A stretch of 64,000 nt of DNA from Candidatus Bathyarchaeota archaeon (GCA_963832745.1 CAWHVC010000003.1:288001-352000); one strand, 5' to 3'; positions 10,912 through 35,588 are shown, counted from the first letter of the stretch. Translations and numbers: made by a program. The notes: generated by a model from the sequence alone, not told the origin.

Positions 10912-11190
10912 ATGGGTTATGCTAATGCCCGACCTGCATTGTACTTACCGTTGCTTTATTTTTCATATTATCCTATTTGGATCCTATTAGAAACTCATTG
11001 TAGGAACCTATAGGGGGTCTATCTTTTCAGCGCTTTCTGCTACGAACCTATTTGGCGCCTATTAGTGGTTCTATGTTGAAACCTTAGAGGGGCAGGTAGA
11101 AAACTGGTTATTTCTCCACCAAATACAATAGGAAACCTATAGGGGATAGGCGCTAATGGTTGATTTTCACGTCATTAATATGATGAAAAA
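10912..11190. repeat. Dispersed non-coding element, copy A (two full cores and one partial core)
   Basis: Shares upstream ATGCTA.TGCCCGAC.TGCA, core CCTATT.G..CCTATTAG...GAAACCTATAGGGG and tail TAGG...TGA...TCA...TAT..TGAAAA with 18934-19158 and 35436-35588. Confidence 0.85.
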
Positions 11191-11197
11191 CTTGGGG

Positions 11198-11968
11198 TTA
11201 GGCGCTGATTTTTGGTGGTGGACGAACACGCCTGCCCATTTTGATGCGGAGCGCAACGCGGTAGAGTTTGCGTAGTGATTTTACCAGTTGCTCAACCGTT
11301 GGGGCGGAAGAGTAAATCAAAGGTATCTGCTCATACTCAGCCAGTTTAGCAGCTTCTTCATCAGGCAAGGTTTTATGGAAAACCACCACCCGCGGCTTAA
11401 GCGTGCTAACGCGGACAATCATCATCGGCAAACTGCAGGCATCCACATTAGTAAAAATTAGCGCCCGCTCGGTGGAAGCACCAAAAAGTTGTGTATACTC
11501 GGAGCCTGAGAGAGCTTCAACAGCACGTTTACTGTCAATAACCGTGTAACCCGTGATTTCTCTAACAGATTTTTCTTCTTTAAAAGCAACTACTTCGCCG
11601 TTAATTGCCCGGCACAAGTATTCAACGCGAACTGGAATAGGAAATTCCCGCAGGTCAATAATGGCCATGCTTGGGGAACTGGTAAGTTTAGCAAATTCAC
11701 GTATGAAACGACTGCCCTTAGACTCATCAAGCTGCAATAGCGCCAAGACGAAGCGACGGATGAATTTGGCTCCGGGGCTTTTTCGGCGTCCACTTTCATA
11801 ATCGCTAATAACTGAGGAAGATAAACCCATGCCTTCTGAGAGACTAAGCTGCGAAACTGCGAAAAGTTCACGCCATTTTCTCATAGTAGCGCCTGGTCTT
11901 GCGGAAAGAATTATTTCGCCAGCGATTCTTCTTGCCAAAACTTCACGAGTACTAGGTGACACAGACAT
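11198..11968 (-). CDS. Archaeal XRE-family HTH regulator with DRTGG-like domain (COG1709-like)
   Basis: RIAGEIILS..PGATMRKWRELF...SVISDYESGRRKSPG; start placed at MSVSP. Confidence 0.85.
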   Translation of the reverse strand: MSVSPSTREVLARRIAGEIILSARPGATMRKWRELFAVSQLSLSEGMGLSSSVISDYESGRRKSPGAKFIRRFVLALLQLDESKGSRFIREFAKLTSSPSMAIIDLREFPIPVRVEYLCRAINGEVVAFKEEKSVREITGYTVIDSKRAVEALSGSEYTQLFGASTERALIFTNVDACSLPMMIVRVSTLKPRVVVFHKTLPDEEAAKLAEYEQIPLIYSSAPTVEQLVKSLRKLYRVALRIKMGRRVRPPPKISA

Positions 11969-12226
11969 TAAGGGACTCTCTTGGTTTTGCACTGTTTTCT
12001 TTAAACAAGTATAAAGCCATAACGATTTAAGATATGGATGAATTAAAATTTTTTGAAATTCAAACATGGAAGCTTTTTTTATCAAAAAACTAAAAAAATG
12101 GCAGTCAAGAGAGTCATTTTATGCTTGACACCATAACGAGTTTTTGAATTGCGTTTATAAGGAAGTTCCAACATAATTGGCTGTAACGGGCTGTCAAAGA
12201 ACACGACAGAACGATAACCACAATAA

Positions 12227-12523
12227 GTGATAGAAATGACAGAAAAACAACAAGACGTTATATTCGTTGGAAATAAACCCCCAATGAGCTATGTTCTAGC
12301 TATCATCACGGCATTCTCGTCAGGAACCGCAAAAGAAATAACCCTAAAAGCACGAGGCCAAGCAATCACTACCGCTGTTGACGTTGCAGAAATCACAAGA
12401 AGCCGCTTCATTAAAGAACTCAAAGTTCAAAAGATTGCCATAGGAACAGCCGAGATGCCGCCAAGAGAAGGCGAGAACAAGTCCAGAATGGTTTCAACAA
12501 TAGAGATTACTCTACAAAAATAA
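12227..12523 (+). CDS. albA: DNA/RNA-binding chromatin protein Alba
   Basis: IFVGNKPPMSYVLA, LKARGQAITTAVDVAE, VSTIEI. Confidence 0.95.
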   Translation: MIEMTEKQQDVIFVGNKPPMSYVLAIITAFSSGTAKEITLKARGQAITTAVDVAEITRSRFIKELKVQKIAIGTAEMPPREGENKSRMVSTIEITLQK

Positions 12524-12608
12524 ACCAGAAAGGACCAAAAAGCAGTTTAAAATGAGAGTTCAATTGACTCTCAACCCTTTTTACATACAAAAATTTTTTG
12601 CCTACAGG

Positions 12609-13508
12609 CTATGCCATAAAAATTAAGCCAACACCAGTCACAATCGCCAATGCACCTAAAACTGTTCCAGCTGAAGCTTTTTCCCTAAACAAAAACATAC
12701 CAGCAAATGCTGCAAATAAGGGTGAAACAGACGAAATTGGAACCGCCTGAGCCTCAGCTACACTTAGAAAACTGTAATTCAACAAAAACCAGCCTAAACC
12801 GTTAGCGATTAAGCCACCGATACACAGTTGGAGCACGGTTTTGCGTTTCATCTTTAAAAAACCACGGTTTTTATCAACTAAAGGCGTCAACGCTATAAAG
12901 AAGACCGCCATAGAAACAACCCTTAATGCTACAAGGGCGTAGTCGGCTTGCAAACTGGGCATGGCTGCATTAGAAACGGCGACGTCCATAAGTGTAACAC
13001 CAATCGACCAAAACACAGCCGTAGCTAGACACAGGCCTACACCAAAAATTACAGCTTTACCTTTCACGTTTGTTACTTCAACATTTTTTTGGCTACTTAA
13101 AAGCCAAATTCCAAAAACAATAAAGACTGCGCCAACAACAGCCGCTTCGGATAAGGGTTGACCAAGAAACGCTATAGCCCACAAAAGACTAAATAAAGGA
13201 TAAGTTGCAGCCAACGGCACCGCTCTAGATACACCTAAAGTTTTGAGGCCAAACATGTACAGGGTATCCCCGATTCCTAACCCGACGATGCCGCTTATTA
13301 TGGTGACAGCTAAAATCCACAGGGGCAACTCAGCTAAAATGCTGACGCCGCCTAAAATAAACAGGACAACAACAAGCACGGCAGCGTTAGTTACACTGCG
13401 TATGATGTTTGCTGAAACAGGTTTTGTGCCTTCGAGGGCTTTTCGGTAAAGTAATGGCGCTATTGCCCAGCTTAAAGCTGCACCTAAAGCCGCTAGTTCC
13501 CCAATCAT
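12609..13508 (-). CDS. EamA/DMT family transporter
   Basis: About 10 TM helices in two EamA repeats (GDTLYM...GVSRAVPL...PLF; AVPISSVSPLF...FREK). Confidence 0.9.
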   Translation of the reverse strand: MIGELAALGAALSWAIAPLLYRKALEGTKPVSANIIRSVTNAAVLVVVLFILGGVSILAELPLWILAVTIISGIVGLGIGDTLYMFGLKTLGVSRAVPLAATYPLFSLLWAIAFLGQPLSEAAVVGAVFIVFGIWLLSSQKNVEVTNVKGKAVIFGVGLCLATAVFWSIGVTLMDVAVSNAAMPSLQADYALVALRVVSMAVFFIALTPLVDKNRGFLKMKRKTVLQLCIGGLIANGLGWFLLNYSFLSVAEAQAVPISSVSPLFAAFAGMFLFREKASAGTVLGALAIVTGVGLIFMA

Positions 13509-13603
13509 TAATTAACCTAAGGCAAGGCAAAAAACCGAGGATAAAGAGGTTTTGATTAAATAAAAAGAAAAACAGATAAAAAATGGCTGTACCGAAGAAA
13601 AGG

Positions 13604-14455
13604 CTATTTTTTGAGTTTAGCCTCAACTTTCTCTACGATTTGATTGAAGATTTTGGATGCTTCAGATTCAGGGTAAGAAATAACAAACGGCAACCCTTTA
13701 TCAGCGTCAACACCGATTTTGGGGTCAATCGGGATGCTTCCAAGAAAATCAACATTCATTTCTTTAGCCATTTGTACTCCGCCGCCAGACTGGAAAATCT
13801 CAGTTTTTACACCGCAATGCGGACAAATGAAGCCGCTCATGTTTTCCACTACGCCAAGGACGGGCATGTTGAGGTTTTCGGCAAACGTGACAGCTTTTTT
13901 AACGATTTCGCTGGACAATACCGAGGGCATGGTAACGATGATTACGCCGTCCATTTCGGGCAACAATTGTGCTACGCTTAAGGGTTCATCGCCAGTTCCA
14001 GGAGGCAAATCTATAAGAAGATAGTCTAATTCGCCCCATAGGACGTCGGAGAGGAACTGTTTGATTGCTTTCATTTTAAGGGGGCCACGCCAAATGGTTG
14101 GGGTTTGTCCCGGCAGGAAAAAGTCTATTGACATGACTTTAATGCCCATGGGTCCTTCGACAGGGAAGGCACCTGCAATGTTGGACCGGACTGTTTTGCC
14201 CTCTAAACCGTACAGTCGGGGAATACTTGGGCCGTGAATGTCAGCGTCTAAAACGCCGACGCGGTAGCCTTCTTTAGCCAATGCGGCACCCAAGTTGGCG
14301 GTTACGGTGCTTTTACCTACTCCGCCTTTGCCGCTGATTATGGCGATTTTATGTTTAATTTGCTTCATGTTATCTTGGAGCCGTTGTTGGTCTTCGGCTT
14401 CTTGTTGACGATAAGCTTCAAGTTGGGCTCTGTTTTGCTCTAACCGACTACTCAT
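13604..14455 (-). CDS. Mrp/NBP35 Fe-S cluster carrier ATPase
   Basis: SGKGGVGKST, DADIHGPS, WRGP, DLPPGTGDE, ENMSGFICPHC. Confidence 0.95.
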   Translation of the reverse strand: MSSRLEQNRAQLEAYRQQEAEDQQRLQDNMKQIKHKIAIISGKGGVGKSTVTANLGAALAKEGYRVGVLDADIHGPSIPRLYGLEGKTVRSNIAGAFPVEGPMGIKVMSIDFFLPGQTPTIWRGPLKMKAIKQFLSDVLWGELDYLLIDLPPGTGDEPLSVAQLLPEMDGVIIVTMPSVLSSEIVKKAVTFAENLNMPVLGVVENMSGFICPHCGVKTEIFQSGGGVQMAKEMNVDFLGSIPIDPKIGVDADKGLPFVISYPESEASKIFNQIVEKVEAKLKK

Positions 14456-14552
14456 AAAAACACACTTTTCCTAAGGCTTTGTTTAGGGTTGATTATTGAA
14501 GTAAACTAAAAAGGTTTATGGTAAAATCGACGGCAATAAGGATTAAAAAAAA

Positions 14553-15038
14553 TTAACCCTGTTTGTAACCGATTTTTCTTAGAAACGCCCTTCGCTCTGC
14601 AATGTCTTGTTCTGTTTCTATTCCTTTGCTTTTGAACCCGTCTACAACGCCGATTATGCCTCTGCCCTGTTCTGTTTCAACAATCAGGACCTGCAATGGA
14701 TTGGCTGTTGCTGCGTAAACGGTGCAGACTTCGGGGACTTTTTTGATTTTGTCAAGCACGTTTAGGGGGTAAGCGTTTTTGAGGTAGATTAAAAAGCTGT
14801 GTCCGCAGGCGATTTCAAAAGCTTTCTCCGCTGCCAGCCTTCGCAGTTCGGCGTCATTGCCTTCGTGTCGTACAAGGCAGGGTCCTGAGCTTTCACAGAA
14901 GCCTAGCCCAAACTGGATTTGTGGAACAGAATTAATTAGTGCCTCATAGAGGTCTTCGGCTGTTTTAATGAAGTGTGCCATGCCAAGGATGATGTTGCAG
15001 TCTTTTGGTGGGTCGATTTTTATGGTTTTAAAATCCAA
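14553..15038 (-). CDS. Adenosine-specific kinase family protein (DUF355/PAE2307-like)
   Basis: [40 protein letters not shown]. Confidence 0.85.
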
Positions 15039-15207
15039 AGCTTTTCGCCTAAAACATTTTGGTCTAATTAGCTTTTAAGAATTTGGCAAGTTTTTTGGCT
15101 GTCACGCTTGCTTATGATAAATTTTATATGGCACATACAACAGTCCAATAAAGCGAAGTGCAAACCACAAATTTTGCACCTTAAACGTTTAGAAGGAGTT
15201 GAAAGTA

Positions 15208-15351
15208 GTGTCCGAGAAAGAAATGCACAAGGCAACTTGCTCTGAATGTGGTCAAGAATGTGAAGTTCCATTCAAACCAGACCCAGCCAGGCCAGTTTAC
15301 TGCCGTGAATGCTGGTCCAAGAAACGTCCAGCAAGACCACGCAGATACTAA
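15208..15351 (+). CDS. Small CxxC-x17-CxxC zinc-ribbon protein (not in the ORF track)
   Basis: Manual translation MSEKEMHKATCSECGQECEVPFKPDPARPVYCRECWSKKRPARPRRY*; AGGAG upstream. Confidence 0.9.
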   Translation: MSEKEMHKATCSECGQECEVPFKPDPARPVYCRECWSKKRPARPRRY

Positions 15352-15499
15352 GCAAGTTAAGCTTAGCCTTCCAAAATCCAATTTATTCTTTATTTTTTCA
15401 AGCTTGAACCAAACAGTTTTTTTAGTAGGATAACATGTTGTGGTGAATGCAAAAGCTAAATATTGCTGGAAACCAATGTTTTCCAGTCGCATAGGTCAA

Positions 15500-15576
15500 G
15501 GGCCGATAGTTCAGCTGGTATGAACGCTTGACTTGCACTCAAGAGGTCGGGGGTTCAAATCCCCCTCGGTCCACCA
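15500..15576 (+). tRNA. tRNA-Ala(TGC), CCA encoded
   Basis: Acceptor GGGCCGA/TCGGTCC with G3:U70; anticodon arm CTTGA-CTTGCAC-TCAAG; T arm GGGGG-TTCAAAT-CCCCC. Confidence 0.97.
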
Positions 15577-15689
15577 GAAACCGCTTCATTAATTAATACT
15601 TAGAAACGTGGGATTCCAGTTTTACTAAGTTGATGTTTTGAGAAACAATTAATTAGTTGCTGTTCCTAATTTGGTGTTGAGGTTTTTTA

Positions 15690-16124
15690 GTGTTGTCAGA
15701 TGATGATACTCCACTCCATTTTGAAGGCCGTGAAGATGTAATATCAGAGAAAGTTCTCCGTTTTGAGGGAAAAAATAAAGATTTAGATAAATTATCTAGG
15801 CAAATCATTGAGAAACTATCTTCCAAAGGCTACAAAACACAGTCAACCACAAATTCTATGGGCATAATCATACAAGCTAAGAAAGCTGGAGTTCTAAGGG
15901 ACATCATCACTGCAGAAAGAGCGTTTACAATTTTAATATCTGGTCAGCCCAACGATTTCACAATTCACATAGGCATAGGCAAATTTTACCAGAATTTAGC
16001 AGTGGCATCAGTTGAAGCCGTCTTAACGGTCGGCCTGTTTCTTATAGTTGACATACCCGAAATGCTTTGGAATGATGAGGTAGAAAAAGGAATCATTAGA
16101 GACATGGTTGAAATCGTGGGTTAA
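15690..16124 (+). CDS. Hypothetical protein
   Basis: 144 aa ORF with protein-like composition; GAGG upstream. Confidence 0.65.
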   Translation: MLSDDDTPLHFEGREDVISEKVLRFEGKNKDLDKLSRQIIEKLSSKGYKTQSTTNSMGIIIQAKKAGVLRDIITAERAFTILISGQPNDFTIHIGIGKFYQNLAVASVEAVLTVGLFLIVDIPEMLWNDEVEKGIIRDMVEIVG

Positions 16125-16149
16125 ACTGTAAAAAGCAGCTAACTCGATT

Positions 16150-16929: not shown

Positions 16930-17045
16930 GATTCATTCAGCCGTCTAACAATAACTTCAGATATTAGCATTATGGCGATAAAGGATGATGTGGTTTCTTT
17001 CTGGCGGTAAAGAAATAGGTTTCCGCGGGCGATTTCTCCACTAGA

Positions 17046-17071
17046 CGAGGGTTCAAATACCCTCGATCCAC
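17046..17071 (+). repeat. Degenerate copy of the tRNA-Ala 3' end (att-like scar)
   Basis: CGAGGGTTCAAATACCCTCGATCCAC versus tRNA CGGGGGTTCAAATCCCCCTCGGTCCAC, same strand, about 1.5 kb downstream. Confidence 0.7.
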
Positions 17072-17079
17072 TTTTTAAT

Positions 17080-17499
17080 TCATTTAATCGTCTTTTTGTA
17101 TTCGAGTGGTCGAATTATTGCAAATTGTTTAAATTTCTTCCAGTCGCCAACGTCTTCAGTGATAATTTTTTCTAAACCCTTAAGACGCATACATGCTGCA
17201 TGCACTGAATCATAACCAACACCTGACGCACTCGTTAACTTGGCCGCTTCCTCCATGGTTTGCTCGTCAATTGTTATCATATTAATGGGAAGCGAAAATA
17301 ACGCTTGCAACGCCAAACCAGCCTTTTGCGCGTCAATTCGAGCTAAAGCCCCAAGAAGCTCAATTGGCACCATAAAACTGCAGTAAGCCTTAATTTTTTG
17401 GTCTTGAATATCATCAACTATTTGTTTGCAGGATTCACCGTAGACTGGATGCGCTAAAGCGGAGTAAATGAAAATGTTAGTGTCTATGTAGTAACTCAA
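17080..17499 (-). CDS. vapC: PIN-domain toxin (VapC family)
   Basis: YIDTNIF, IEL, YDSVHAA, IITED acidic PIN motifs; overlaps the antitoxin stop. Confidence 0.9.
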   Translation of the reverse strand: MSYYIDTNIFIYSALAHPVYGESCKQIVDDIQDQKIKAYCSFMVPIELLGALARIDAQKAGLALQALFSLPINMITIDEQTMEEAAKLTSASGVGYDSVHAACMRLKGLEKIITEDVGDWKKFKQFAIIRPLEYKKTIK

Positions 17500-17777
17500 T
17501 TTTTGTTTGCCCTTTTGGTTTTTCTCACTTCAAGAGACGGTTGGGTATTTTCTAAGGATTCTTCAATCAGCTTTACAGCATCAACATCCATCGGTTTCCC
17601 AAAAAGACACCACAACGTGTCTGAAGGATTAGAAACACGCTTCGGAGACTCCATTATGATGCGGTTGTTCTCAGATTTCACTAAAAGTTTGTCGCCTATT
17701 TTGACACCCAATTCAGAGCGTACACTTTCAGGGATAGTAACTTGGTATTTCCGAGTAACTTTAACCTCGTCTTTCAA
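17496..17777 (-). CDS. vapB: AbrB/MazE-type antitoxin
   Basis: VKVTRKYQVTIPESVRSELGVKIGD; TTG start at 17777. Confidence 0.88.
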   Translation of the reverse strand: MKDEVKVTRKYQVTIPESVRSELGVKIGDKLLVKSENNRIIMESPKRVSNPSDTLWCLFGKPMDVDAVKLIEESLENTQPSLEVRKTKRANKN

Positions 17778-17869
17778 AAGGAACCCCAAAAACTTAGTAG
17801 TACATGAGTAGTACTTAAAAATATCTGAAAGAACACCTGATTTGCAAAAGGGCATAAAAAATTTTGTAC

Positions 17870-18328
17870 TCATTCTTTTCGGAAAACCGATCCGAACATC
17901 ATTTGTTCTATTTTGCCGTTTTTGCCTGTAACCCACACCTCATCCGCCAGCTCAACCACCTTATCGACACTTTCGCCTGCCGTCTCGGGAAAAACTGCGA
18001 CCACATAACTGTCCCGGGGCAAACACTTCTGCAGCACAGCAAGCCGCACCCTAAGCCTACTCAACCTCACCTTGGAGGCGCATTCAACCCCAAACACTGT
18101 GCCTATTGAATGCTTGGCAAGGACTTTAACAAAAACCGTTTTGCCTCCAAAAGCGATGGGTACATCAAACTTTATGTCGGTAAATCCTCTGTCGTTCCAA
18201 AGCTTCAAAGCCGCTGCAACCTTGAGGGCTCCAATGGTTGGGGAACTTTTGCGTGCTGCCATGTAATTTGCTTTGAGTTCAGCAGGTAATTTGGCTATAA
18301 TATCAGCCTGAGAATCATCGGGTGACAT
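17870..18328 (-). CDS. Hypothetical protein, possible degenerate PD-(D/E)XK nuclease fold
   Basis: Helix followed by IKFDVP..VFVKVLA..FGVEC pattern; overlaps the end of the upstream RHH ORF. Confidence 0.55.
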   Translation of the reverse strand: MSPDDSQADIIAKLPAELKANYMAARKSSPTIGALKVAAALKLWNDRGFTDIKFDVPIAFGGKTVFVKVLAKHSIGTVFGVECASKVRLSRLRVRLAVLQKCLPRDSYVVAVFPETAGESVDKVVELADEVWVTGKNGKIEQMMFGSVFRKE

Positions 18329-18486
18329 TTGGAGCAGCCTCCATTTTTTTTGAGTAATTGTGCTTTTTCGTTAACTAAAACTCTGATGAGTTCGGCATTA
18401 TTTTGAATACCATAATATTTTTTCAGGGCTTCAATCTTTCTTTTTAGGTCTTCTTCCAATTCTACGTTTACTTGTGTGATACTCAT
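18295..18486 (-). CDS. Ribbon-helix-helix (CopG-like) DNA-binding protein
   Basis: QVNVEL strand, EEDLKRKIEALKKYYG helix, NNAELIRVLV helix. Confidence 0.75.
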   Translation of the reverse strand: MSITQVNVELEEDLKRKIEALKKYYGIQNNAELIRVLVNEKAQLLKKNGGCSKCHPMILRLIL

Positions 18487-18933: not shown

Positions 18934-19158
18934 ATGGGCCATGCTAGTGCCCGACTTGCATTTTGCTGTTCAACGCTTATCATTGCTTTCTTTGAAGCTC
19001 TATGTCGCTGCCAACCTATTAGCAACCTATTAGAAACTTTATGCAGAAACCTATAGGGGCAGGTAAAAACCAACCTCTTTTTGGAATAACGGAAAAAAAT
19101 CCCTAAGGGGGGTGTAGGTCCGTATTGGCTGAAAACACGCTCATGAGTATGTTGAAAA
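18934..19158. repeat. Dispersed non-coding element, copy B
   Basis: Exact 20-mer TATGCAGAAACCTATAGGGG shared with copy C; upstream and tail blocks shared with A and C. Confidence 0.85.
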
Positions 19159-19177
19159 TCAGTAGTTATTTTTGTGG

Positions 19178-20032
19178 TTAGAGTTGCCATAGCGTTTTGG
19201 CGGTGTGTGAGGCTTTCTCTATCAAAGACAGAACCGTTGGGTGCGGCAAACCGAGTTTGTGTTCGTAAAAGTCTATGTCATGTTCAAGCACCTGCCGTAT
19301 GAGCACAATGCCAACATCAACCAGCCTTAGTCTGGTTTCGATACTGACACCCCGCAGGCAACTCAACGGGTACAGCTTATGTTTTTCAACCACGTCCCGC
19401 AAGCCAGAACCTTCCGGAGAAGCCCAACCAATCTGCACGATGCCCCGGCAGCCGCCATAAGTCAAAGCGTGCTCGGAGTACTTGGTGTTTGTGACTATGA
19501 CGGCTTTGTCGATTTTGATTTTGGTTACGCCTTGCTGGTAGCCTTCTGTTACGTCTTCAAGTATTGCTCGGGCGATGCGTGTTTCGTCCAAGCCAGTTAA
19601 GCCGTGGTAATTGAAGTGGTGTTTTGCTTCAACAAAATAGGTTAAACCATTCTTGGATGCAATCGCGTCAGCCTCATGTTCCCCACACAAACCCTGCAGA
19701 ATCGTGTTAGGTTGAACCTCAAAGCCGCTGTGTGCCAAGACGGTTTGGATGAAAACTTCAAATTCGGGTTTAGGCTCCATCAAACTTATGCCCCGACGCA
19801 AATCAAAGATGTGCCGAAGGGCAGGTTTGGGTTTACGCATCAAACTAAAAATGTACTGGAGAACCTTGCGTGTCGGTATGCCCTCGTAAAGGCGCCGTTC
19901 AACCTGCACGGCTACACGTTCAGCAGTTTCAGGGTCAGCACCCATCCGCAGGCAAGTCTGCACCACTTTTCCGTGGTCATACTGTTGTGTGGAACCGTCT
20001 GCTTTAGTTACAAAAGTCAAACGCCAAATCAT
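19178..20032 (-). CDS. ATP-cone domain fused to an Mrr-like restriction endonuclease domain
   Basis: VTKADGS...KV..T..RMGA ATP-cone; EFE...HEADAIA...FVEAKHH PD-(D/E)XK motif; VTNTKYS. Confidence 0.85.
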   Translation of the reverse strand: MIWRLTFVTKADGSTQQYDHGKVVQTCLRMGADPETAERVAVQVERRLYEGIPTRKVLQYIFSLMRKPKPALRHIFDLRRGISLMEPKPEFEVFIQTVLAHSGFEVQPNTILQGLCGEHEADAIASKNGLTYFVEAKHHFNYHGLTGLDETRIARAILEDVTEGYQQGVTKIKIDKAVIVTNTKYSEHALTYGGCRGIVQIGWASPEGSGLRDVVEKHKLYPLSCLRGVSIETRLRLVDVGIVLIRQVLEHDIDFYEHKLGLPHPTVLSLIEKASHTAKTLWQL

Positions 20033-29149: not shown

Positions 29150-30415
29150 TTACTGCATTTTGAATCTCAGTATCGCTGCTAAACCGCCAAAAGCGTTCTT
29201 GAGCATTTGACCTTCCTCAGTTTCTGTTGAGATTACTTCAACGTCCGTGTTTGTATTTTCCGCAAGCACCGCCAAGTCGTCTATAATGTCAATTTTCTCA
29301 ACTATCGTCAACGATGGGGCGGAACATTTGGGACATGGCTTCCCAGATAGGCTTTGCTCAAACGTTTGCAGGTTCGGAGTTTTGACGGTTTCTTGTTCTT
29401 GATAGTTGCATGCGCCGCATTTGAAGGTTACACGTTGCATGTCAAGTGCTTCTGAAATCAAAAGTGTCCTAACCATACCGGATTCAAGGGCTTTTCGCAC
29501 TTCGGCTTCACCGTAAGTAATTAAGCCTGTGTCATGACCGACTTCATAGAGGAATTTCTGCATGATTTGTTTTTCCTCGATATAACGGACTTTCTTCACG
29601 ATTTCAGGAGCTTTATCTACAACTTCTTTTACTCCCTGCTCTTCCACGTATGCAGTGTCAAGTACGTCTAAAATTTTGTTTTTTAATTGATAATTGAGGT
29701 AATCGCCTTTTTGAAAGTCATACTTAGTTGGCCCTGGACCCCCAAGAATTATTCCCTTCAAATTATCTATAGGCAAAAAGATTTCGTCTGCATGTTTACC
29801 TACACGGGTAAAGTATTCGTTAAGATGCATTTCCCTCAGGCGTTCATAACGTCTTGCTGACTGGCCACCAGCACGAGTTTTACCTTCTACACCTGAATGC
29901 ATTTCCCGCACTATGTTTAGGTGTTTACCGGTTAAGGTTGCTATTGTAGCGTTTGAAGCGTCAACAAGCAATATTCCGTAGGTTTCTTTTTCCCTAAGCA
30001 TTTCTTGCAGGTGCTCGGTATGGAAACGTGAGTCGCAGCGGTAAAGAAAAATGCGGATTGGTTCAGGTGGAGCAATTACCCAAGATTCCATGCGTTCGGT
30101 TCCGGGGCCACCGCCTTCTTGTGGAAGTGCACCACAGAAAATTACCAGACCTTTCTCGCCGGGGTCTTTGAATAGTTTAAGTTTTTGTTGAGCTTTTACG
30201 ATGGCATCTAGAACGTTTTTGCGTGTAACGTTTGATTTAATGTTTGTTGCTGTACCGTATTCTTCACGTAGAAGGTTAAGGGCGTCGCTGATTTGTTTGC
30301 CAGGAGGAACATAAATTGTAATCAACTCTGTGTGGCTGCCCTCTTTCTTGGCTAGCGTGTTGATTGCTTTTCTGGTTCGATATAGCTCTAAGCTATCTTT
30401 TTTTGCTGTGCTCAC
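29150..30415 (-). CDS. prf1: Peptide chain release factor aRF1
   Basis: NIKS, YRCDSRF, GGQS; zinc-ribbon insert CGAC...CPKC. Confidence 0.97.
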   Translation of the reverse strand: MSTAKKDSLELYRTRKAINTLAKKEGSHTELITIYVPPGKQISDALNLLREEYGTATNIKSNVTRKNVLDAIVKAQQKLKLFKDPGEKGLVIFCGALPQEGGGPGTERMESWVIAPPEPIRIFLYRCDSRFHTEHLQEMLREKETYGILLVDASNATIATLTGKHLNIVREMHSGVEGKTRAGGQSARRYERLREMHLNEYFTRVGKHADEIFLPIDNLKGIILGGPGPTKYDFQKGDYLNYQLKNKILDVLDTAYVEEQGVKEVVDKAPEIVKKVRYIEEKQIMQKFLYEVGHDTGLITYGEAEVRKALESGMVRTLLISEALDMQRVTFKCGACNYQEQETVKTPNLQTFEQSLSGKPCPKCSAPSLTIVEKIDIIDDLAVLAENTNTDVEVISTETEEGQMLKNAFGGLAAILRFKMQ

Positions 30416-30495
30416 AATAATTCACGTAAGTTGAGATTAGACTCTTTTAGTTAGGGTATAAGAACAAAATAAAAGTTCCTACAGAAGAAAGGAAA

Positions 30496-31509
30496 CTATG
30501 CTTTTGGTTTCTCTGCGGGGGCGGCTGCTGGTTCAGGGGCAGGAGCACCGATGGCGTCTCTTAGGTACGACTTGAATGGACCTAGTTTACCGCCGTAGTT
30601 ACCTGCTGAAATCTTGACTACACCAGGACAGTTAATTGAGGCTGCAACACCGACCTGCATAGCTTTGTTAACTGCTTCAAGAGTTAAACCGTTTAGCACT
30701 ATTTCAAAAACGCTGTTAACGCCTTCTGGAACAACCGTGTCTGGAACAACTGTCCGCAATGTTGGGCAGTAGGCTTGGTTTGTTGAAGCTTTTAGCTTGT
30801 ATTTTAATGAGCCTGCTTTGCTTCCTGAACGGCATACACCGCCCGGGAAAGGCATAATTACATCAGGAACTTGCGCACGTATTGCATCTACTGCTGCTTC
30901 TGATGCCGCTAAGGCTTCTGGCTGTGTTTTAGCAAAAATCATATAGTTTCCGCCTGCAACTGCTTCCATTGCGCCAAACCCGTCTTCTACGATAAAGTTT
31001 CCTTCCATTACAGGGATTTTCCAGCATTTTCTTCCGCCAACCATGGTTTTCTTTTGGAAACCGTCACCGAAGTAGCGTAGGCTGCTGCCAATGTTAAGGG
31101 TGCGTTTGCCAAGTAAACCGTTAAACGCAGCGGTTGAAGGGCAAGTCATGACACATTGTCCAATGCGTCCCATAAGTTGACCTTTTAGTTCGAAGCGGTC
31201 ACGGTTGTAAATCTGAATCAGTACACCTGGTCGCTTGTCTGGTGTTTGATCCGCTGGAACTGCGCGTTCGATAGATGCTTCTGCTGAAGCAGCAATTACG
31301 CTTGTGGCGTAACCTGTAGTTATGCTTCCAGCGATTTGTGCCCATTTCTCGTTTTGGGCTGTGATTAGAACTCTTCCCACCCAAAGCGGGAACATTTCAG
31401 CGAAAGTATCACTTACTTTAACGGTTTGACCCGAGGCTGACTTTACAAGAAAAACCTTTTCTTTATCGTCATAACCGGTAATTTCAAGCTTGTTAGTATT
31501 TAATGACAT
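30496..31509 (-). CDS. ftr: Formylmethanofuran:tetrahydromethanopterin formyltransferase
   Basis: DTFAEMF, TPDKRPG, RIGQCVMTCP, FGDG, PFPGG..RSGSK, ISAGNYGGKLG. Confidence 0.93.
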   Translation of the reverse strand: MSLNTNKLEITGYDDKEKVFLVKSASGQTVKVSDTFAEMFPLWVGRVLITAQNEKWAQIAGSITTGYATSVIAASAEASIERAVPADQTPDKRPGVLIQIYNRDRFELKGQLMGRIGQCVMTCPSTAAFNGLLGKRTLNIGSSLRYFGDGFQKKTMVGGRKCWKIPVMEGNFIVEDGFGAMEAVAGGNYMIFAKTQPEALAASEAAVDAIRAQVPDVIMPFPGGVCRSGSKAGSLKYKLKASTNQAYCPTLRTVVPDTVVPEGVNSVFEIVLNGLTLEAVNKAMQVGVAASINCPGVVKISAGNYGGKLGPFKSYLRDAIGAPAPEPAAAPAEKPKA

Positions 31510-31699
31510 GGAAGAGACCTTGGATTCACTTGGGACTTGTATAATTTAAGAGTTTTCTTAAAAACCACTTTGTTTGTTCGAGTTTAGGCTTAATTTAATT
31601 GTTAAATCATGCATTTAGTGCTTATTTGACGCTTTATCAAACAGGGCACAACTACAAAACGCGTTAATTCAAGGGCCATTAAAAGAACAGAAAATGTCT

Positions 31700-32770
31700 T
31701 TAGAATAGCGCGTAAGGATAGAATTGCTTGGAAGAGTAATATTTGCCTTTGATAGGCAATTGGTTTCCACAGAATTTACAGTGCATGTCACCGGTTAAGT
31801 TCCATTGGACGATTTCGAATCCTTCACGGCGTATCACTGCTTCCCTGCATGCGGGACAATAGGTGTTTTCTGCAACGTGCCCAGGCACATTTCCAAGATA
31901 CGTAAACAGTAACCCTTCACCTTTGGCAACAAGGTAAGCATGCTCCATATCTTCAATAGGCGTAGCTGGAACAGTGGTCATTTTGTAATCTGGATGAAAC
32001 CTTAACAGGTGAAAAGGAGTGTTTGGACCTAAATAGTCATTAACCCATTTTGCCAAACGCTTTATCCGATACATCGAATCACCAGTTTTGGGAACAACAA
32101 GATTTGTGATTTCAATATGAACCCCATCAAGCTTGAATTCTTTTAAAGCGTCAAAAATCGGTTTCACGTCAGGCACTGCGGAAACAGTCTTGTAGAATTT
32201 AGGGTCAGCAGCTGCTTTAAAATCCACCGTTACAGCATCAAGATACGGCGAAATTGCCTTAACAGCCTCAGGAGTCATATAACCGTTCGTTACAAACGTG
32301 TTAAAAAGACCTGCCTCGTGAGCAAGCCGAGCGGTGTCGTAAGCGTACTCCATGAAAATGGTGGGTTCAGTATAAGTGTAGCTGATTCCTTGACAATCAG
32401 CCTCTTTTGCTTGTCTAACGATTTCTTCAGGCGATAATGGGTTGCCAGCAACTTCCTTGTCTTGGCTTATCATCCAATTATCGCAGAATTGGCACCTAAA
32501 ATTGCACCCCGCCGCCGCTACTGACAGCACCGACGCGCCAGGGTTAAAATGAGAAAGCGGTTTTTTGCCGATTGGGTCGACAGCGAGTGAAACAGCTTTA
32601 CCGTAATTTAAAGTATAAAGTTTACCGCCTTGATTTTTTCTGACCAAACAGAAGCCGGTTGAGCCATCGCTGATTAAGCAGCGTCTTGCGCACAAACAGC
32701 ATTTTACCTTGTTATCTTCTTCGCGTGTGTAAAGCATTGCTTCATGAAGTGACATTTCAGACTTCACCAA
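31700..32770 (-). CDS. amrS: AmmeMemoRadiSam-system radical SAM enzyme
   Basis: CLCARRC...GFCLVR, DPIGKKPL.HF.PG, GCNFRCQFCDNW, YTYTEP, RFHP, TYCPAC. Confidence 0.9.
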   Translation of the reverse strand: MVKSEMSLHEAMLYTREEDNKVKCCLCARRCLISDGSTGFCLVRKNQGGKLYTLNYGKAVSLAVDPIGKKPLSHFNPGASVLSVAAAGCNFRCQFCDNWMISQDKEVAGNPLSPEEIVRQAKEADCQGISYTYTEPTIFMEYAYDTARLAHEAGLFNTFVTNGYMTPEAVKAISPYLDAVTVDFKAAADPKFYKTVSAVPDVKPIFDALKEFKLDGVHIEITNLVVPKTGDSMYRIKRLAKWVNDYLGPNTPFHLLRFHPDYKMTTVPATPIEDMEHAYLVAKGEGLLFTYLGNVPGHVAENTYCPACREAVIRREGFEIVQWNLTGDMHCKFCGNQLPIKGKYYSSKQFYPYALF

Positions 32771-32887
32771 ATAAAAGAGACAATAAACTGACTCTCTTCA
32801 TAGAATTATGAAGCTTTTTTCTTAATAACTTTTAGCTTGAACCTTTTCTGCATTGGATAAAACATATACATAGTTAACGCTAACTGT

Positions 32888-33364
32888 TTGTATCCATGTG
32901 AGGCACCGGTTTTGGCGAGGACAGGCAAAGAAGAGCTGGAAGGAATCACTCTTAAAGTGTATCTTTATGTGGTGAAAAAGAAGGCTCCAGTGGGCACACG
33001 TGAAGTTACCCGCGGATTAAATCTTAGCAGTCCCAGCGTTGCATACAGGCATCTGGAAAAACTGGAAACAATGGATTTGCTACAGAAGAACCAGTACGGC
33101 GAATACACTGTTAAACAGAGGGTAAACCTTCCTGGATACACTTGGATGGGTAGGCATCTTTTGCCGAAAATGCTGCTTTATTCAACGGTTTTTGCCGCTA
33201 TTTTGGTGGTGGAGTTGGTGGTGTTAGCGCTTCATTTTACAGTTGAAACTTATGAGTTCAAAGTTTTTTTTGCGTTGCTTATCTTGATAACCTGTTTAGC
33301 GTTGGCAGTATTCATTGTTGAGGATTTAAGACAGGGTAGAAGAAGAACTGTTTTAGCTCAATAG
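32888..33364 (+). CDS. Winged-helix regulator with two C-terminal TM helices
   Basis: TLKVYLY...GTREVTRGLNLSSPSVAYRHLEKL...GEY followed by two hydrophobic helices. Confidence 0.8.
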   Translation: MYPCEAPVLARTGKEELEGITLKVYLYVVKKKAPVGTREVTRGLNLSSPSVAYRHLEKLETMDLLQKNQYGEYTVKQRVNLPGYTWMGRHLLPKMLLYSTVFAAILVVELVVLALHFTVETYEFKVFFALLILITCLALAVFIVEDLRQGRRRTVLAQ

Positions 33365-33408
33365 GAAGGTTTTCTGCTGAAAAAGTTTTGAAGCCTTAAA
33401 CATGGCTT

Positions 33409-34161
33409 TTGGCAAAAAATTTCTATACTTGGACTTGCCTGTTAAGTAAAACAGGACTACCCAGCAACCAAATTGGCTTAGAGGGGCAGAATCTGAAAAA
33501 CAAAAAGTTCATAATCGTTTTAGCGGTGTTTCTGGTTTCAGTAACGCTGGTGTATTCAATAGTCTCGTTAGGAAACGTTCCAAACAACCAAAACGGTAAG
33601 CTTGCCCGTGTTGCCTGTATGGGTGATAGTATCACGGAAGTTTCCGGTTACCCTGAAGATTTGCAAGCGCTGCTTGGTAACGATTCGGTTGTAGGCAATT
33701 TTGGTGCCAGAGGGGCAACAGTAAGCTTTGGTTCTGTTAACCCATACTATTTTCATGAACAGTATCCAGACGCGGTCGATTTTCAACCTTCTACAGTTAT
33801 TTTGATGCTTGGAACCAACGATGCCCGGTCAGACACATACAAACTGATAGACAGTTTTGTCAGCAATTATGAAAGAATCATTGAAGGAATCCAGAATTCA
33901 AATGACAGCAGCACAGCACAAATTTTCTTGGTGAAGCCTCCGCCGATTCTGGAAAATGACTTAAACCTCAGCAGCACAGCCTTCGCTGAAGGAGTAATAC
34001 CCAAAATAGAACAAGTCGCAAACGAAACCAACGTGCAAATAATTGATCTTTACACACCCCTGCTGAATCATCCAGAATACTATCTTGATGGCGTGCACCT
34101 AAACAGTGAAGGCGCCCAATACATCGCAGACATTATCTATCAAGCCATCAAAAACCAGTAA
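33409..34161 (+). CDS. SGNH/GDSL hydrolase (acetylesterase-like) with N-terminal anchor
   Basis: GDSIT, NFGARG, LGTND, DGVH; start may be CTG at 33493. Confidence 0.9.
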   Translation: MAKNFYTWTCLLSKTGLPSNQIGLEGQNLKNKKFIIVLAVFLVSVTLVYSIVSLGNVPNNQNGKLARVACMGDSITEVSGYPEDLQALLGNDSVVGNFGARGATVSFGSVNPYYFHEQYPDAVDFQPSTVILMLGTNDARSDTYKLIDSFVSNYERIIEGIQNSNDSSTAQIFLVKPPPILENDLNLSSTAFAEGVIPKIEQVANETNVQIIDLYTPLLNHPEYYLDGVHLNSEGAQYIADIIYQAIKNQ

Positions 34162-34163
34162 GT

Positions 34164-35246
34164 TTAACCGATAAGTTTTCTTAAAATCGGCACTTTGCGC
34201 ATAAGCAGAATCAAACCTACAGTTATAAAAAGCGTAATAACTGTGATTAACGGGATTTCTATAATAGGGTTTAAAGTTACAGCGCTTAATGTGAAACCGA
34301 AAAAGCCCCTCTGCAGAGACTCCAAAATAATGACATGCAGCAAGAAAATTGGCAAAGTATTTTGACCGATGACTTTGATGACTCTGCTTAGGGTTGCATG
34401 GGTTTTTCCAGGCCAATCGGGTGGACGAATCTTTATCAAAAGCATGAAAAAGGCAATTGAACCTAAGATTACGTTTGCGGTTAGGTAATCAAAAAAGAAA
34501 CTATTTTTGTCCATGTAAGCTAATGGATAATTCATTAGCCAAACGCCAAATATTGTCCAAACACAACTCAACGCCAACAAACCATACAAGAAAATGAATC
34601 GCACGTGTACCCTTTGCAGGTATATACCTAAAGCGAAGTAGCCTATCCAACCGATTATTAGAAACACTAAATTGTAAAACGTGTAGATTCCGGCTAACTG
34701 TATGATGGGCACAACCGCTACGGCCAAAAACCACAACAGTATCAGGTACCTTAGAACATTCCATTTTCCATTGCAAATCATTGCCCTTAAAATCGGCGTA
34801 ACCAAATAAAGACCAATTATAAGATACAAAAACCAGAAGTGAAAATACGAACCACTAAAAACACCGAAAAGCGTTGCCTCTGCAATATTGCCCCAAGTTA
34901 AAGGCATCTGACTAATGAAAAAACCCCAAACTAAATAGACGACGGTCCAGAAAGCAAAAGCCAACCCGATACGGCTTAACCGTTTCTTTAGAAAGACACG
35001 GATGGGTTCATCTAGCTTGCTGGGTTGAAGAAGCAATGAACCACTTAACATTACGAACAATGGAACACATGACAAAGAGATTGTTTTGTAAATAACTGCG
35101 GTCCACCAGTAAGAATCTGGGACACATGCCAATTGAAGGATTTCGTTTGAAGCATGCAGCGTTATAACTAAAACTATGGCTATGGTGCGAATGAGGTCAA
35201 CTGGATAATCAACTTTACCTGCATCCTCGTTATCCCGTCCAAACAG
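34164..35246 (-). CDS. Acyltransferase family 3, paralog of 22025-23137
   Basis: VPLFVMLSG, HFWFLY; frame extends 5' of the ORF call through DLIRTIAIVLVITLH to a CTG at 35246 preceded by GAGGTG. Confidence 0.88.
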   Translation of the reverse strand: MFGRDNEDAGKVDYPVDLIRTIAIVLVITLHASNEILQLACVPDSYWWTAVIYKTISLSCVPLFVMLSGSLLLQPSKLDEPIRVFLKKRLSRIGLAFAFWTVVYLVWGFFISQMPLTWGNIAEATLFGVFSGSYFHFWFLYLIIGLYLVTPILRAMICNGKWNVLRYLILLWFLAVAVVPIIQLAGIYTFYNLVFLIIGWIGYFALGIYLQRVHVRFIFLYGLLALSCVWTIFGVWLMNYPLAYMDKNSFFFDYLTANVILGSIAFFMLLIKIRPPDWPGKTHATLSRVIKVIGQNTLPIFLLHVIILESLQRGFFGFTLSAVTLNPIIEIPLITVITLFITVGLILLMRKVPILRKLIG

Positions 35247-35435
35247 TCCCCGGCACCTCAGAACAGAAAGTAGAATACCAAATTTAGCTCAGATTATATA
35301 AAACTGCTTGAGGCAAAAACAAAAAGCAAAAAAGTAGGAAGCCAAACGATAAAATGCTAACAAAAAATGCGCTCAACCAACGTAAGTTAAACAACCACTA
35401 AAAAAACTAAAAACGGCAGGAAAGGTACTCTTGTA

Positions 35436-35588
35436 GCCCATGATAGTGACCGCTTGCAGTGTAATGTCAACTAATTGCGTTGCTTTATTTTTTACACAAC
35501 CTATTAGGATCCAAATAGAGGTTCTATGCAGAAACCTATAGGGGTAGGTCGTATTGGATTGAAATCAAGTCACTGGTATATTGAAAAA
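35436..35588. repeat. Dispersed non-coding element, copy C
   Basis: 15-mer CGTTGCTTTATTTTT shared with A; 20-mer shared with B; tail TAGGTCGTATTGG.TTGA...GTCA...TAT..TGAAAA. Confidence 0.85.

Follow-up and report, generated by a model that had tools for sequence, protein, structure and literature searches.

Within the 64,000-nucleotide stretch analyzed here (the window), which comes from a Bathyarchaeia archaeon with a 3.02-Mb genome that is 99% complete (G000), three intergenic loci carry related non-coding sequence. A first-pass annotation had described them as copies of a dispersed element and had proposed a REP-like or other non-autonomous repeat, a chromosome-organization site, and a structured RNA as candidates. 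Here, we ask what kind of element these loci represent, how widely it is distributed and what it may do in the genomes that carry it.

Anatomy of the three loci and of the basic unit

The three loci were found at 10912-11190 (copy A), 18934-19158 (copy B) and 35436-35588 (copy C), and the four collinear blocks reported for them are present in all. When the copies were aligned, a mean column identity of 61% was obtained. Copy A contains, as described before, two full cores and a half core (10972-11017, 11047-11098, 11133-11148). Its end lies 7 nt from the stop of the convergent gene 11198-12085, and the tail of copy B is followed by the stop of the convergent gene 19178-20032. The following features were assigned in and beside the three copies:

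10836..10855, + strand: copy A, BRE/TATA-like block 5′ of the head; aligns with the block of 20 head-bearing copies, its TATA part being degenerate
10912..10971, + strand: copy A, head (block 1) and T-rich block 2; a small hairpin GGGY..RCCC is the sole predicted pairing
10972..11017, + strand: copy A, first core; pair of 7-bp sites (11-bp spacing), conserved core and G-run
11047..11098, + strand: copy A, second core; separate nhmmer match
11133..11191, + strand: copy A, half core and tail; G-run, imperfect hairpin, A-rich end
17870..18328, - strand: linked gene P0001, outside the repeat; 152 aa, predicted PD-(D/E)xK nuclease fold, direction of transcription pointing away from head B
18295..18486, - strand: linked gene for a small ribbon-helix-helix (RHH) protein; overlaps the start of P0001
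18877..18895, + strand: copy B, BRE/TATA-like putative promoter block; conserved in 20 aligned heads
18934..19013, + strand: copy B, head and block 2 (by alignment)
19014..19065, + strand: copy B, core; pair of 7-bp sites (11-bp spacing), conserved core and G-run
19066..19100, + strand: copy B, variable spacer found in the long form
19101..19166, + strand: copy B, tail; second G-run and GTAG, imperfect hairpin, A-rich end
35436..35499, + strand: copy C, decayed head and block 2; no recognizable promoter block
35500..35590, + strand: copy C, short unit in which core and tail are directly fused (by alignment)

A and B had been taken to start with the head, but their true extent reaches further 5′ and includes the promoter-like block and a G/T-rich leader. 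The earlier description contained neither the promoter block nor 11-bp phasing as a general rule nor a link to synteny breaks.

The basic unit of the family comprises about 100 bp and consists of phased 7-bp sites, a core, an imperfect hairpin and an A-rich end. The 7-bp site (CTAWTWG) occurs in either orientation and is present once in 24 units, twice in 52, three times in 22 and four times in 1. Neighboring sites are phased at 11 bp, exactly so in 85 of 99 pairs, and paired sites are direct as often as inverted. The core (about 25 bp) is nearly invariant and non-palindromic and terminates in a G-run followed by GTAG. This GTAG is located directly 3′ of the G-run and 5′ of the tail hairpin, and its columns are at least 90% conserved among 20 aligned units. 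The imperfect stem-loop is flipped among copies, and both hairpins and site pairs occur in the two orientations. The middle module varies in its number of phased sites (one to four) and of cores (one to two and a half) and in whether a spacer is present. Profile matches cover the core about 116 times, the tail about 76 times and the head about 22 times. Downstream of 99 cores, the tail motif follows after 30-40 nt in 29 cases and after 44-320 nt in 39; it is absent within 330 nt in 21 and ambiguous in 10.

An inverted-repeat search detected no consistent terminal inverted repeats (TIRs) linking the ends of A, B and C. The previous statement that TIRs are lacking holds for B and C; in copy A, a weak 15-nt inverted repeat (80%) connects block 2 with the tail end. 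Target duplications, the absence of which had also been noted, were not seen on 29 short units, for which the longest k-mer shared by the flanks averaged 3.24 (vs. 3.61 ± 0.21 in shuffled pairings). The claimed absence of a conserved ORF fits as well, because indels between heads are not multiples of three. No excess of T-runs was observed after the tail; copies with block 2 carry T-runs at their outer ends, on the strand that faces incoming transcription.

Genome-wide family

When an nhmmer profile of the three copies was run on the whole genome, many further copies were recovered. For this genome we obtained 133 matches at E<1e-3 (57 at E<1e-10), which correspond to 129 loci. The loci are spread over five contigs and both strands at distances of kilobases, and 124 of the 129 are intergenic (outside ORFs). 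A 17-mer core pattern (at most one mismatch) occurred 59 times, and the backwards control gave 0 occurrences. The family is far beyond chance expectation, and the earlier suspicion that it is genome-wide was borne out; it corresponds to no described family. Full-text literature searches retrieved no published description of the repeat. The main text of a large MITE census, which relied on TIRs plus target site duplications (TSDs) for detection, does not mention Bathyarchaeia (PMC11602168).

The common orientation of A, B and C turned out to be a local feature and not a property of the family, since 70 of the matches are on the + strand and 63 on the - strand. Gaps holding units were convergent in 20, divergent in 23 and co-directional in 55 of 98 cases (background: 312, 478 and 1171). 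Unit orientation is weakly biased (36 vs. 19, p = 0.03), and no association of units with GC skew or gene strand was found.

Distribution among relatives and shared positions

Sequence model R1 gave 106 matches in this genome and 119 (G008), 49, 25, 24, 14 and 13 in congeners; no match was obtained in 12 of 24 congeners, among which are genomes 97-100% complete. Within one genus, species thus differ in copy number between 0 and about 120. The 17-mer core was found 87 times in G008 and once each in G003, G013 and G016, which is the control level. Among 201 genomes of the class, seven carried at least 12 copies, all of one family, and genomes outside that family had 0-1.

For 15 of 19 units of G008, a unit is present at the matching position in this genome. 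The position-matched partner was the best sequence match in only 2 of the 15 cases, and matched pairs were no closer than random pairs. Orthologous sites differ in architecture, with long and short forms replacing each other, and related genomes carry different modules at the same site, in opposite orientation in two relatives. In one relative, an IS is inserted in the center of a site pair. A clean pair of empty and filled sites was not obtained from the relatives, which are only about 80-86% identical in DNA. The positions common to two species speak against recent transposition. That cores are nearly perfect in more than 100 copies in both species requires selection or gene conversion and thus, a host function is possible.

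Units at synteny junctions

As an unbiased sample from one congener, a whole 376-kb contig of G008 was compared with this genome. Here, units were found at 9 of 12 non-collinear junctions and in 7 of 63 collinear gaps (Fisher p = 1.5e-5). Since the two genomes were assembled from metagenomes, mis-joins at repeats could mimic some of these junctions, but this is unlikely as the copies differ enough. At a tenth junction units were present at both partner sites, which brings the junctions that involve units to 10 of 12. A 13-kb inversion has, in this genome, a unit at either end, the two being inverted relative to each other. Among unit-centered loci, 8 of 20 were junctions at the unit. Twenty offset control loci contained only three junctions, and all three were also at units. 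The crossovers map inside units: two of three mapped cases adjoin the G-run/GTAG and the third is elsewhere in the unit. At sites A and B and at several collinear loci, indels of at least 0.7 kb lie directly beside a unit.

Head, promoter-like block and RNA structure

About 21 copies (about one sixth), A and B included, add a head of about 90 bp and the BRE/TATA-like promoter block; about five sixths of the loci lack both. In A and B, this block and the G/T-rich leader are located about 40-80 nt upstream of the previously assigned start. In the 21 copies the block is about 65-75 nt 5′ of the head, and it resembles a motif upstream of tRNA genes in the same genome. A second type of body is preceded by this promoter and head as well. 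Conservation of the promoter block suggests that some copies may be genes.

The head hairpin has a U-G pair in 7 of 20 copies and a compensated pair in 3 of 20, a pattern that fits the + strand only, and the 20 heads gave only six predicted pairs (-5.55 kcal/mol). For 29 units no consensus fold was obtained on either strand (RNAalifold -1.36 and -1.20 kcal/mol), and minimum free energies were no better than those of shuffles (z-scores +1.01 and +0.53). These data leave the structured-RNA candidate of the first-pass annotation unsupported. In an Rfam scan of the window only two tRNAs reached the gathering score, with no match for the repeat. A search of copy B at E up to 10 returned only SNORD46, a chance snoRNA match of 19 bits against a 40-bit gathering score.

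Mobility enzymes and linked genes

No Y1, Y2 or IS110 transposase, serine recombinase or reverse transcriptase was found in this 99% complete genome. The best reverse transcriptase score was 16.5 bits, which is below the cut-off, and TnpB was seen below cut-off only. The unit-rich genomes G000, G008, G005 and G010 had 0 hits for Y1 (PF01797), Y2 and serine recombinase. These enzymes are present in some genomes with no R1 unit, PF01797 for instance in the unit-less G016 and G013. An autonomous copy was not found genome-wide; the single core-to-tail pair that encloses genes contains two small ORFs on the opposite strand. IS200/IS605 loci of G071 and G174, unit-bearing genomes of another genus, gave only chance coding matches to the tail.

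The AlphaFold model of P0001 (pLDDT 90) matched best to XisH-family proteins in the PDB, followed by NucS and Card1 nuclease domains. The P0001 family has eight loci in this genome, each located 0.4-1.6 kb upstream of a head. G008 with its 119 units lacks the family, and in G007 only one of three loci adjoins a head. The small gene at 18295..18486 gave a Pfam RHH_1 match (E 6e-4) of 20.0 bits, just under the 20.5-bit cut-off. The small genes beside heads differ in fold (RHH, AbrB and winged helix, as judged by sequence reading) and thus, they provide no single candidate.

Discussion

The comparisons show a repeat family with a defined anatomy, a patchy distribution, positions shared between two species and a presence at synteny junctions. 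We consider it probable, though far from certain, that this family is a REP/BIME- or BOX-like mosaic intergenic repeat that acts as a recombination substrate. A REP-like or non-autonomous repeat was also the best-fitting of the three readings proposed initially; the chromosome-organization site may still apply in the form of a protein-binding variant. According to this explanation, a DNA module recognized by a protein would have multiplied in some lineages, although we infer both the protein binding and the mode of spread. Its units would now occupy fixed intergenic slots and may be kept near the consensus by inter-copy exchange, selection or both. Unit copies would serve as crossover points for chromosome inversions and translocations, and the promoter-bearing copies may be transcribed.

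In a passage of PMC3733652, REPs are described as ending in GTAG. The archaeal units resemble the REP/BIME (REPIN-RAYT) systems of enterobacteria and pseudomonads in being extragenic, in reaching about 100 or more copies and in having an imperfect palindrome that is GTAG-tagged at one end. They also form mosaics with other short motifs, and their abundance differs sharply between related species. BIMEs show different architectures at the same site in related genomes, act as recombination join points and are targets of IS insertion, and the archaeal sites are similar in these three respects. REP palindromes measure about 20-40 bp, and a RAYT (Y1 HUH transposase) gene is usually flanked by REPs, whereas the unit-rich archaeal genomes lack RAYT or any Y1 transposase. 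Moreover, the archaeal unit is longer (about 100 bp), with 11-bp-phased sites, a non-palindromic 25-bp core and, in some copies, promoter blocks. BOX elements of Streptococcus pneumoniae (boxA-boxB(n)-boxC) are modular and intergenic, with about 100 copies, a variable middle module and no known transposase. The modular intergenic build, the variable number of middle modules and the copy number are similar in our family, which is an architectural likeness only and not homology, and a relation in sequence would not be expected; BOX is predicted to fold as RNA, but no sign of folding was obtained for the archaeal units.

The heptad iteron operators of omega-type ribbon-helix-helix repressors contain arrays of 7-bp sites, which work in direct as well as inverted orientation. 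The archaeal 7-bp arrays and the small RHH genes beside some heads recall this system, but the archaeal period is 11 bp and the heptads are not contiguous. With IS200/IS605 ends and PATEs the units share imperfect subterminal hairpins and the lack of TIRs and TSDs, but they have no strand bias relative to GC skew. We rejected this assignment because TnpA (Y1) is absent here, its presence does not track copy number, and the ends are not shared with the IS200/IS605 loci of G071 and G174. An integron attC array was rejected too, since the loci do not form a cassette array of one orientation. MITEs, defined in a passage of PMC11602168 by TIRs of at least 10-15 bp and TSDs of 2-10 bp, are likewise small, non-coding, intergenic, multi-copy and patchy, but neither such TIRs nor TSDs nor a parent IS were found for our units.

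Several other explanations have to be weighed against a recombination-prone mosaic repeat. A more far-reaching version, which we regard as doubtful, is that the unit, with its phased sites and its flip-prone hairpin tagged by GTAG, is acted upon by an archaeal DNA-processing activity not yet described. Such a REP-like system would work without a RAYT, perhaps with the linked XisH-like nuclease-fold proteins or with another protein, and it would copy or exchange units between fixed slots and actively drive inversions in Bathyarchaeia; an RNA or a transcription-coupled trigger would come from the promoter-bearing copies. It is rather unlikely that the family consists of multi-copy non-coding RNA genes, in which the promoter block drives a 200-300-nt head-core-tail RNA that acts through its repeated motifs, e.g., as decoy of an RNA- or DNA-binding protein, and head-less units are decayed or read-through copies. 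The promoter block kept in 21 copies and resembling the motif upstream of tRNA genes, the + strand-specific U-G and compensated pairs of the head hairpin and the reuse of promoter and head before a second body type speak for such genes. However, there is neither an Rfam match nor a consensus fold nor a folding energy better than shuffles, about five sixths of the loci lack head and promoter, no T-run excess follows the tail and most congeners lack the family. In addition, the strict 11-bp phasing points to double-stranded DNA. The same phasing (85 of 99 pairs) would fit a reading in which the 7-bp sites and the core form a platform for a lineage-specific DNA-binding protein, such as a regulator, a nucleoid- or chromosome-organizing protein or a two-way transcription stop or insulator between genes, with each locus under selection as a host cis-acting site. 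Palindrome-like sites usable in either orientation, the 15 of 19 shared positions with cores near consensus, the intergenic placement and the outer T-runs of block-2 copies are consistent with this. Nevertheless, we consider it unlikely, as units show no preference among convergent, divergent and co-directional gaps, only a weak orientation bias and no link to GC skew or gene strand. Moreover, complete congeners do without the family, other modules (in two relatives in opposite orientation) occupy the same site in related genomes, and no candidate protein was identified, the P0001 family being missing from G008.

The involvement of units in 10 of 12 junctions might also indicate att-, dif- or attC-like sites, where a dedicated enzyme (recombinase or nuclease) would cleave the DNA in or close to the G-run/GTAG and hairpin and thereby yield inversions, translocations and adjacent gene insertions. 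Two of three mapped crossovers next to the G-run/GTAG, the large indels abutting units (sites A and B included) and the nuclease-fold family linked to heads at eight of eight loci would fit. However, the third crossover is elsewhere in the unit, and the G-run region is the longest stretch of identity, so that homologous exchange would favor crossovers there anyway. Paired sites are equally often direct and inverted, the unit-rich genomes lack serine recombinase, Y1 and Y2, and IS110 was not found in this genome. Since, in addition, the nuclease-fold family is absent from G008 and head-adjacent at one of three loci in G007, and the units are dispersed on both strands instead of being arrayed as in an integron, site-specific recombination appears quite unlikely. 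Archaeal origin recognition boxes (ORBs) cluster around an AT-rich stretch beside orc1/cdc6 and have a dyad-plus-G-string layout, which the GAAAC motif and subsequent G-run of the core recall, and one true ORB of this genome matches the core start at 8 of 9 bases. The idea that the units are ORB-like sites bound by Orc1/Cdc6, or remains of origins of integrated elements, is close to refuted all the same. There are only three true ORBs, beside orc1/cdc6 on contig C3 (484.3-484.8 kb), and these differ in their dyad and have a spacer shorter by 2-3 nt; the ORB pattern search recovers no unit, and about 130 dispersed loci are not origin-like.

Bathyarchaeia are abundant and almost wholly uncultured, and their genome dynamics are poorly known. 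In the examined sample, most rearrangement junctions between two congeneric genomes are attributable to this repeat family. The family can serve directly as a marker in strain typing, and its presence should be taken as a warning in assembly and binning. Its REP/BIME-like behavior, with shared slots, changing architecture and a maintained consensus, proceeds without the known repeat-making enzymes, and this points to a so far unknown binding or recombination activity.

Genome-wide family and anatomy of the unit

The first-pass annotation had described three intergenic loci of the window that share four collinear blocks, and our alignment of these loci (A1) confirmed the blocks at the following positions:

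Copy A: 10912-11190, + strand
Copy B: 18934-19158, + strand
Copy C: 35436-35588, + strand

When a profile built from A, B and C was searched against the genome to which the window belongs (3.02 Mb, 5 contigs, 42% G+C), we obtained 133 matches at E<1e-3, of which 57 reached E<1e-10. Merging of the 133 matches left 129 loci and the genome-wide family, which had been inferred from three copies, does exist. In a crude set of open reading frames, 124 of the 129 loci were free of an overlap of more than half with an ORF. The core 17-mer (at most one mismatch) occurred 59 times in the genome vs 0 times for the backwards control. Conservation of orientation, which the first-pass annotation had noted for the three copies, did not hold up as a family property. 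Genome-wide, 70 profile matches were on the + strand and 63 on the - strand, and the common orientation of the window copies is therefore a local feature only. These repeats constitute a new family of mosaic intergenic repeats.

The unit is a mosaic of about 100 bp and its commonest part is the core (about 116 of the 133 profile matches), followed by the tail (about 76) and the head (about 22), which corresponds to block 1 of the first-pass annotation. The core is nearly invariant and ends with a G-run followed by GTAG. Upstream of it, a 7-bp site (CTAWTWG, in direct or reverse-complement form) occurs 1-4 times: 24 units have one site, 52 have two, 22 have three and 1 has four. Of 99 neighbouring pairs of sites, 85 are spaced by exactly 11 bp, and in 77 of 99 units the last site begins 15 nt ahead of the anchor. 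The tail is made up of an imperfect hairpin and then a short A-rich end, which is conserved. Short units have the tail straight after the core (tail motif 30-40 nt downstream in 29 of 99 cores), and in 39 of 99 it lies 44-320 nt downstream, past a variable spacer and a second G-run/GTAG. For 21 of 99 cores, no tail motif was found within 330 nt, and the remaining 10 of 99 gave an ambiguous near match. Paired sites and tail stem-loops were seen in both orientations among the copies, and their orientation differs even between orthologous copies of two species. Such flipped elements would be the expected outcome of small inversions at inverted repeats.

Head and promoter-like block

A head is present on 21 copies, and 20 of these were included in the head alignment. 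It can be seen that a conserved block, which is preceded by T-runs and looks like an archaeal BRE with a TATA box, lies 65-75 nt upstream of the head. This block resembles a motif found about 40-55 nt upstream of the tRNA genes of this genome; it is good in copy B, degenerate in copy A and missing in copy C. From these motifs, we infer transcription of head-bearing copies. A scan of copy B for sigma-70 promoters and intrinsic terminators, which does not cover archaeal promoters, yielded 0 of either. The core itself (window 19042-19059 in copy B) resembles the BRE/TATA region upstream of tRNA-Phe (contig C1, about 149.67 kb), with the same purine run and CCT followed by TATAG in place of TTAAA; judged from this likeness, the core might derive from a promoter or mimic one.

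A second body type, which consists of several TTGAC repeats and then an A/C-rich tract, follows 5 other heads, which have the promoter-like block as well:

Heads with the second body type, outside the window on contigs C1, C3, C4 and C5 of its genome: e.g. C1-646834, C5-296684, C3-67802, C4-101147, C1+339871

The composition of the A/C-rich tract is complementary to that of the G/T-rich leader. In 3 cases, a gene of the same strand follows about 300-350 nt downstream of this body type, and one of these genes reads, by eye, as ribosomal protein S8e.

Distribution among genomes and viral contigs

We next searched the window's genome and 24 congeners with R1, a sequence-only model of the unit. 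Here, we found 106 matches in the window's genome and 119, 49, 25, 24, 14 and 13 matches in congeners, whereas 12 of the 24 congeners gave 0. The absence of the unit from three of the unit-free congeners (G003, G013, G016) is true and was confirmed by an exact-motif check, which gave 1 core motif in each of them (the control level) vs 87 in the unit-rich congener G008. At least 12 copies were found in 7 of 201 genomes of the class, and all 7 belong to one family (four genera); outside that family, the maximum was 1 copy per genome. The repeat family is specific to one family of Bathyarchaeia. The organism of the window is itself a member of Bathyarchaeia: an MrpORP-like window protein is 91-95% identical to proteins of Bathyarchaeia metagenome-assembled genomes.

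Of 5 matches in IMG/VR, 2 were genuine units (L166; L167/L168) on contigs classed as viral. At locus L168, the unit has an M50 protease gene of host type on one side and a run of ORFs that are virus-like by eye only on the other, and because of these neighbours it may be part of host DNA; possibly, it marks a provirus border.

Alternative readings of the unit

A non-autonomous mobile unit was among the suggestions of the first-pass annotation, which had itself noted the lack of target duplications, terminal inverted repeats and a transposase. Target duplications are indeed missing: the longest k-mer common to the two flanks of 29 units averaged 3.24 vs 3.61 +/- 0.21 in shuffled pairings. The statement on terminal inverted repeats was correct for copies B and C but not for copy A, in which block 2 and the tail end form a weak inverted repeat. 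No core...tail pair of the genome encloses a transposase-like gene. In this 99%-complete genome, we detected neither Y1 nor IS110 enzymes; no reverse transcriptase exceeded the cut-off, and matches to TnpB stayed below it. Across 41 genomes, Y1, Y2 and serine recombinases were missing from unit-rich genomes and present in some genomes without R1 match. All of these candidate mobilisers (Y1, Y2, IS110, RT, TnpB, serine recombinase) were rejected as absent or uncorrelated with copy number, and the unit is no ordinary transposon derivative. Weak tail-like matches at IS200/IS605 loci of genus g18 turned out to be coding sequence at the tnpA/tnpB border. An initially apparent preference for 3' gene ends disappeared when compared with the background: the units occupied 20 convergent, 23 divergent and 55 co-directional gaps (98 in total), with 312, 478 and 1171 such gaps in the background, and are spread in proportion to gap numbers. 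The orientation bias was weak (36 vs 19, p = 0.03), and we observed no link of the units to GC skew (replication strand) or gene strand in the window's genome. A role as origin recognition box was rejected, since the true ORBs of the genome differ from the units and are confined to the vicinity of orc1/cdc6. A likely replication origin is located outside the window, at 484.3-484.8 kb of contig C3: directly upstream of an orc1/cdc6 gene, an AT-rich stretch is surrounded by three boxes of the ORB type (dyad plus G-string).

The structured RNA, another candidate of the first-pass annotation, was not supported. Rfam searches gave nothing relevant at gathering score or E-value thresholds, and RNAalifold of 29 units yielded consensus energies of only -1.36 kcal/mol (+ strand) and -1.20 kcal/mol (- strand). 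The sole predicted pairing in 20 heads was a six-pair hairpin (3 copies compensated, 7 with U-G), and a putative 258-nt transcript of copy B folded no better than shuffled sequences (z = +1.01; reverse strand +0.53). Inspection by eye led us to dismiss a C/D-box, H/ACA or hammerhead RNA, as box spacings did not fit and no model matched. Reading of the head as a small ORF was also rejected, because the heads have no conserved ATG and differ by indels that disrupt the frame, in line with the conclusion of the first-pass annotation that there is no conserved ORF. A terminator function of the tail was likewise rejected: T5 occurred within 40 nt downstream in 21% of 78 tails vs 20% of random intergenic 60-mers. 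Taken together, the unit family is not CRISPR, not ORB, not a MITE in the strict sense and not a structured RNA.

A nuclease-fold family beside the heads

A linked nuclease was among the genes to look for according to the first-pass annotation, and a gene family with a nuclease fold was found next to the heads. Two window genes are concerned:

P0001: 17870-18328, - strand, 152 aa, window member of the nuclease-fold family, beside copy B
RHH gene: 18295-18486, - strand, small ribbon-helix-helix gene, overlaps the start of P0001

Members of this family (about 150 aa) occur at 8 loci of the genome (4 intact, 4 broken), at all 8 located 0.4-1.6 kb upstream of a head and transcribed away from it. 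Pfam and NCBIfam gave no match for the family. It has 146 homologues; few of them come with a source name, and those few are nearly all labelled hypothetical. The AlphaFold model of P0001 (pLDDT 90) most closely matched XisH-family proteins in the PDB, followed by the nuclease domains of NucS and Card1, and predicts a PD-(D/E)xK nuclease fold. Together with the RHH gene, P0001 looks like a toxin-antitoxin-type pair. A role of P0001 as the enzyme of the unit was not supported: the family is absent from G008, which carries 119 units, and in genome G007 only 1 of 3 loci is near a head. For these reasons, it cannot be the general maintainer of the units.

Other genes surround copy B. A PIN-domain (VapC-like) gene and its neighbour, an antitoxin gene of the MazE/AbrB type (17080-17499 and 17496-17936, both - strand), lie in a block of about 2 kb along with P0001 and the copy-B head; the relative L002 lacks this block at the corresponding site. 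Convergent on copy B, a gene at 19178-20032 (- strand) encodes an ATP-cone and an Mrr-type restriction-endonuclease domain.

Shared slots with changing content

For 15 of 19 G008 units, the window's genome has a unit no more than about 900 nt away from the matching position, with a chance of positional match of about 8% as roughly estimated from unit density. Only 2 of these 15 positional partners were also the closest unit by sequence, and the place of the partner in a ranking of the 129 loci looks random. At orthologous sites, long forms substitute for short ones and site numbers differ. We therefore conclude that unit positions are old and their contents exchanged, with cores near consensus in both species. 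For cores to stay near consensus while contents are exchanged, either selection or gene conversion between copies is required. At 10-11 of 49 related loci, a unit is present in the 3' flank of the HTH gene adjoining copy A, with differing module sets and with the opposite orientation in two relatives. When empty and filled sites were compared, the candidate locus L135 was not alignable, and the relatives compared at sites A and B differed in gene blocks of kilobase size, with no second unit at the other border.

Next to copy A, an EamA-type transporter gene (12609-13508, - strand) and a block of about 2.8 kb (8374-10751; PKD-domain protein plus small membrane ORFs) are missing at the same place in relatives L001-L005, which represents local gene gain or loss. 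In L003, the copy-B ortholog of a relative, the exact centre of the paired 7-bp sites is occupied by an insertion of about 1 kb (2377-3401, approximately), which has terminal inverted repeats of 15 nt and a duplication of 6 bp; from its position, the palindrome appears to have been the target of an IS.

By analogy, REP/BIME and BOX elements come closest in build and behaviour, which favours the REP-like candidate of the first-pass annotation: the family is mosaic and its slots are common to two species. In enterobacterial BIMEs, slots are likewise kept and contents exchanged. No known mobilising enzyme accompanies the family. REPs carry a GTAG tag and REP classes without dedicated transposase exist (PMC3733652).

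Rearrangement junctions between two species

To compare gene order, we used the congener G008, whose DNA is about 80-86% identical to that of the window's genome; as a caveat, both were assembled from metagenomes. Among 20 unit-centred 5-kb loci, 8 were collinear, 1 carried a 16-kb indel, 8 had a junction exactly at the unit and 3 had one unmatched flank. At 5 of the 8 junctions, there was a unit at both partner sites in the window's genome. Of 20 control loci (15-30 kb offset), 14 were collinear and the sole 3 junctions were also at units. Along a whole 376-kb contig of G008, 12 of 75 adjacencies were non-collinear; a G008 unit was present at 9 of these 12, while of the 63 collinear gaps only 7 had one (odds ratio 24, p = 1.5e-5), and a tenth non-collinear adjacency had units at both partner sites. 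A 13-kb inversion is bounded by two units of inverted orientation in the window's genome. In three-way alignments, the crossovers fell inside the unit, 2 beside the G-run/GTAG and 1 at the border between core and sites. These data indicate that chromosomal rearrangements between two of the species are located mainly at the units.
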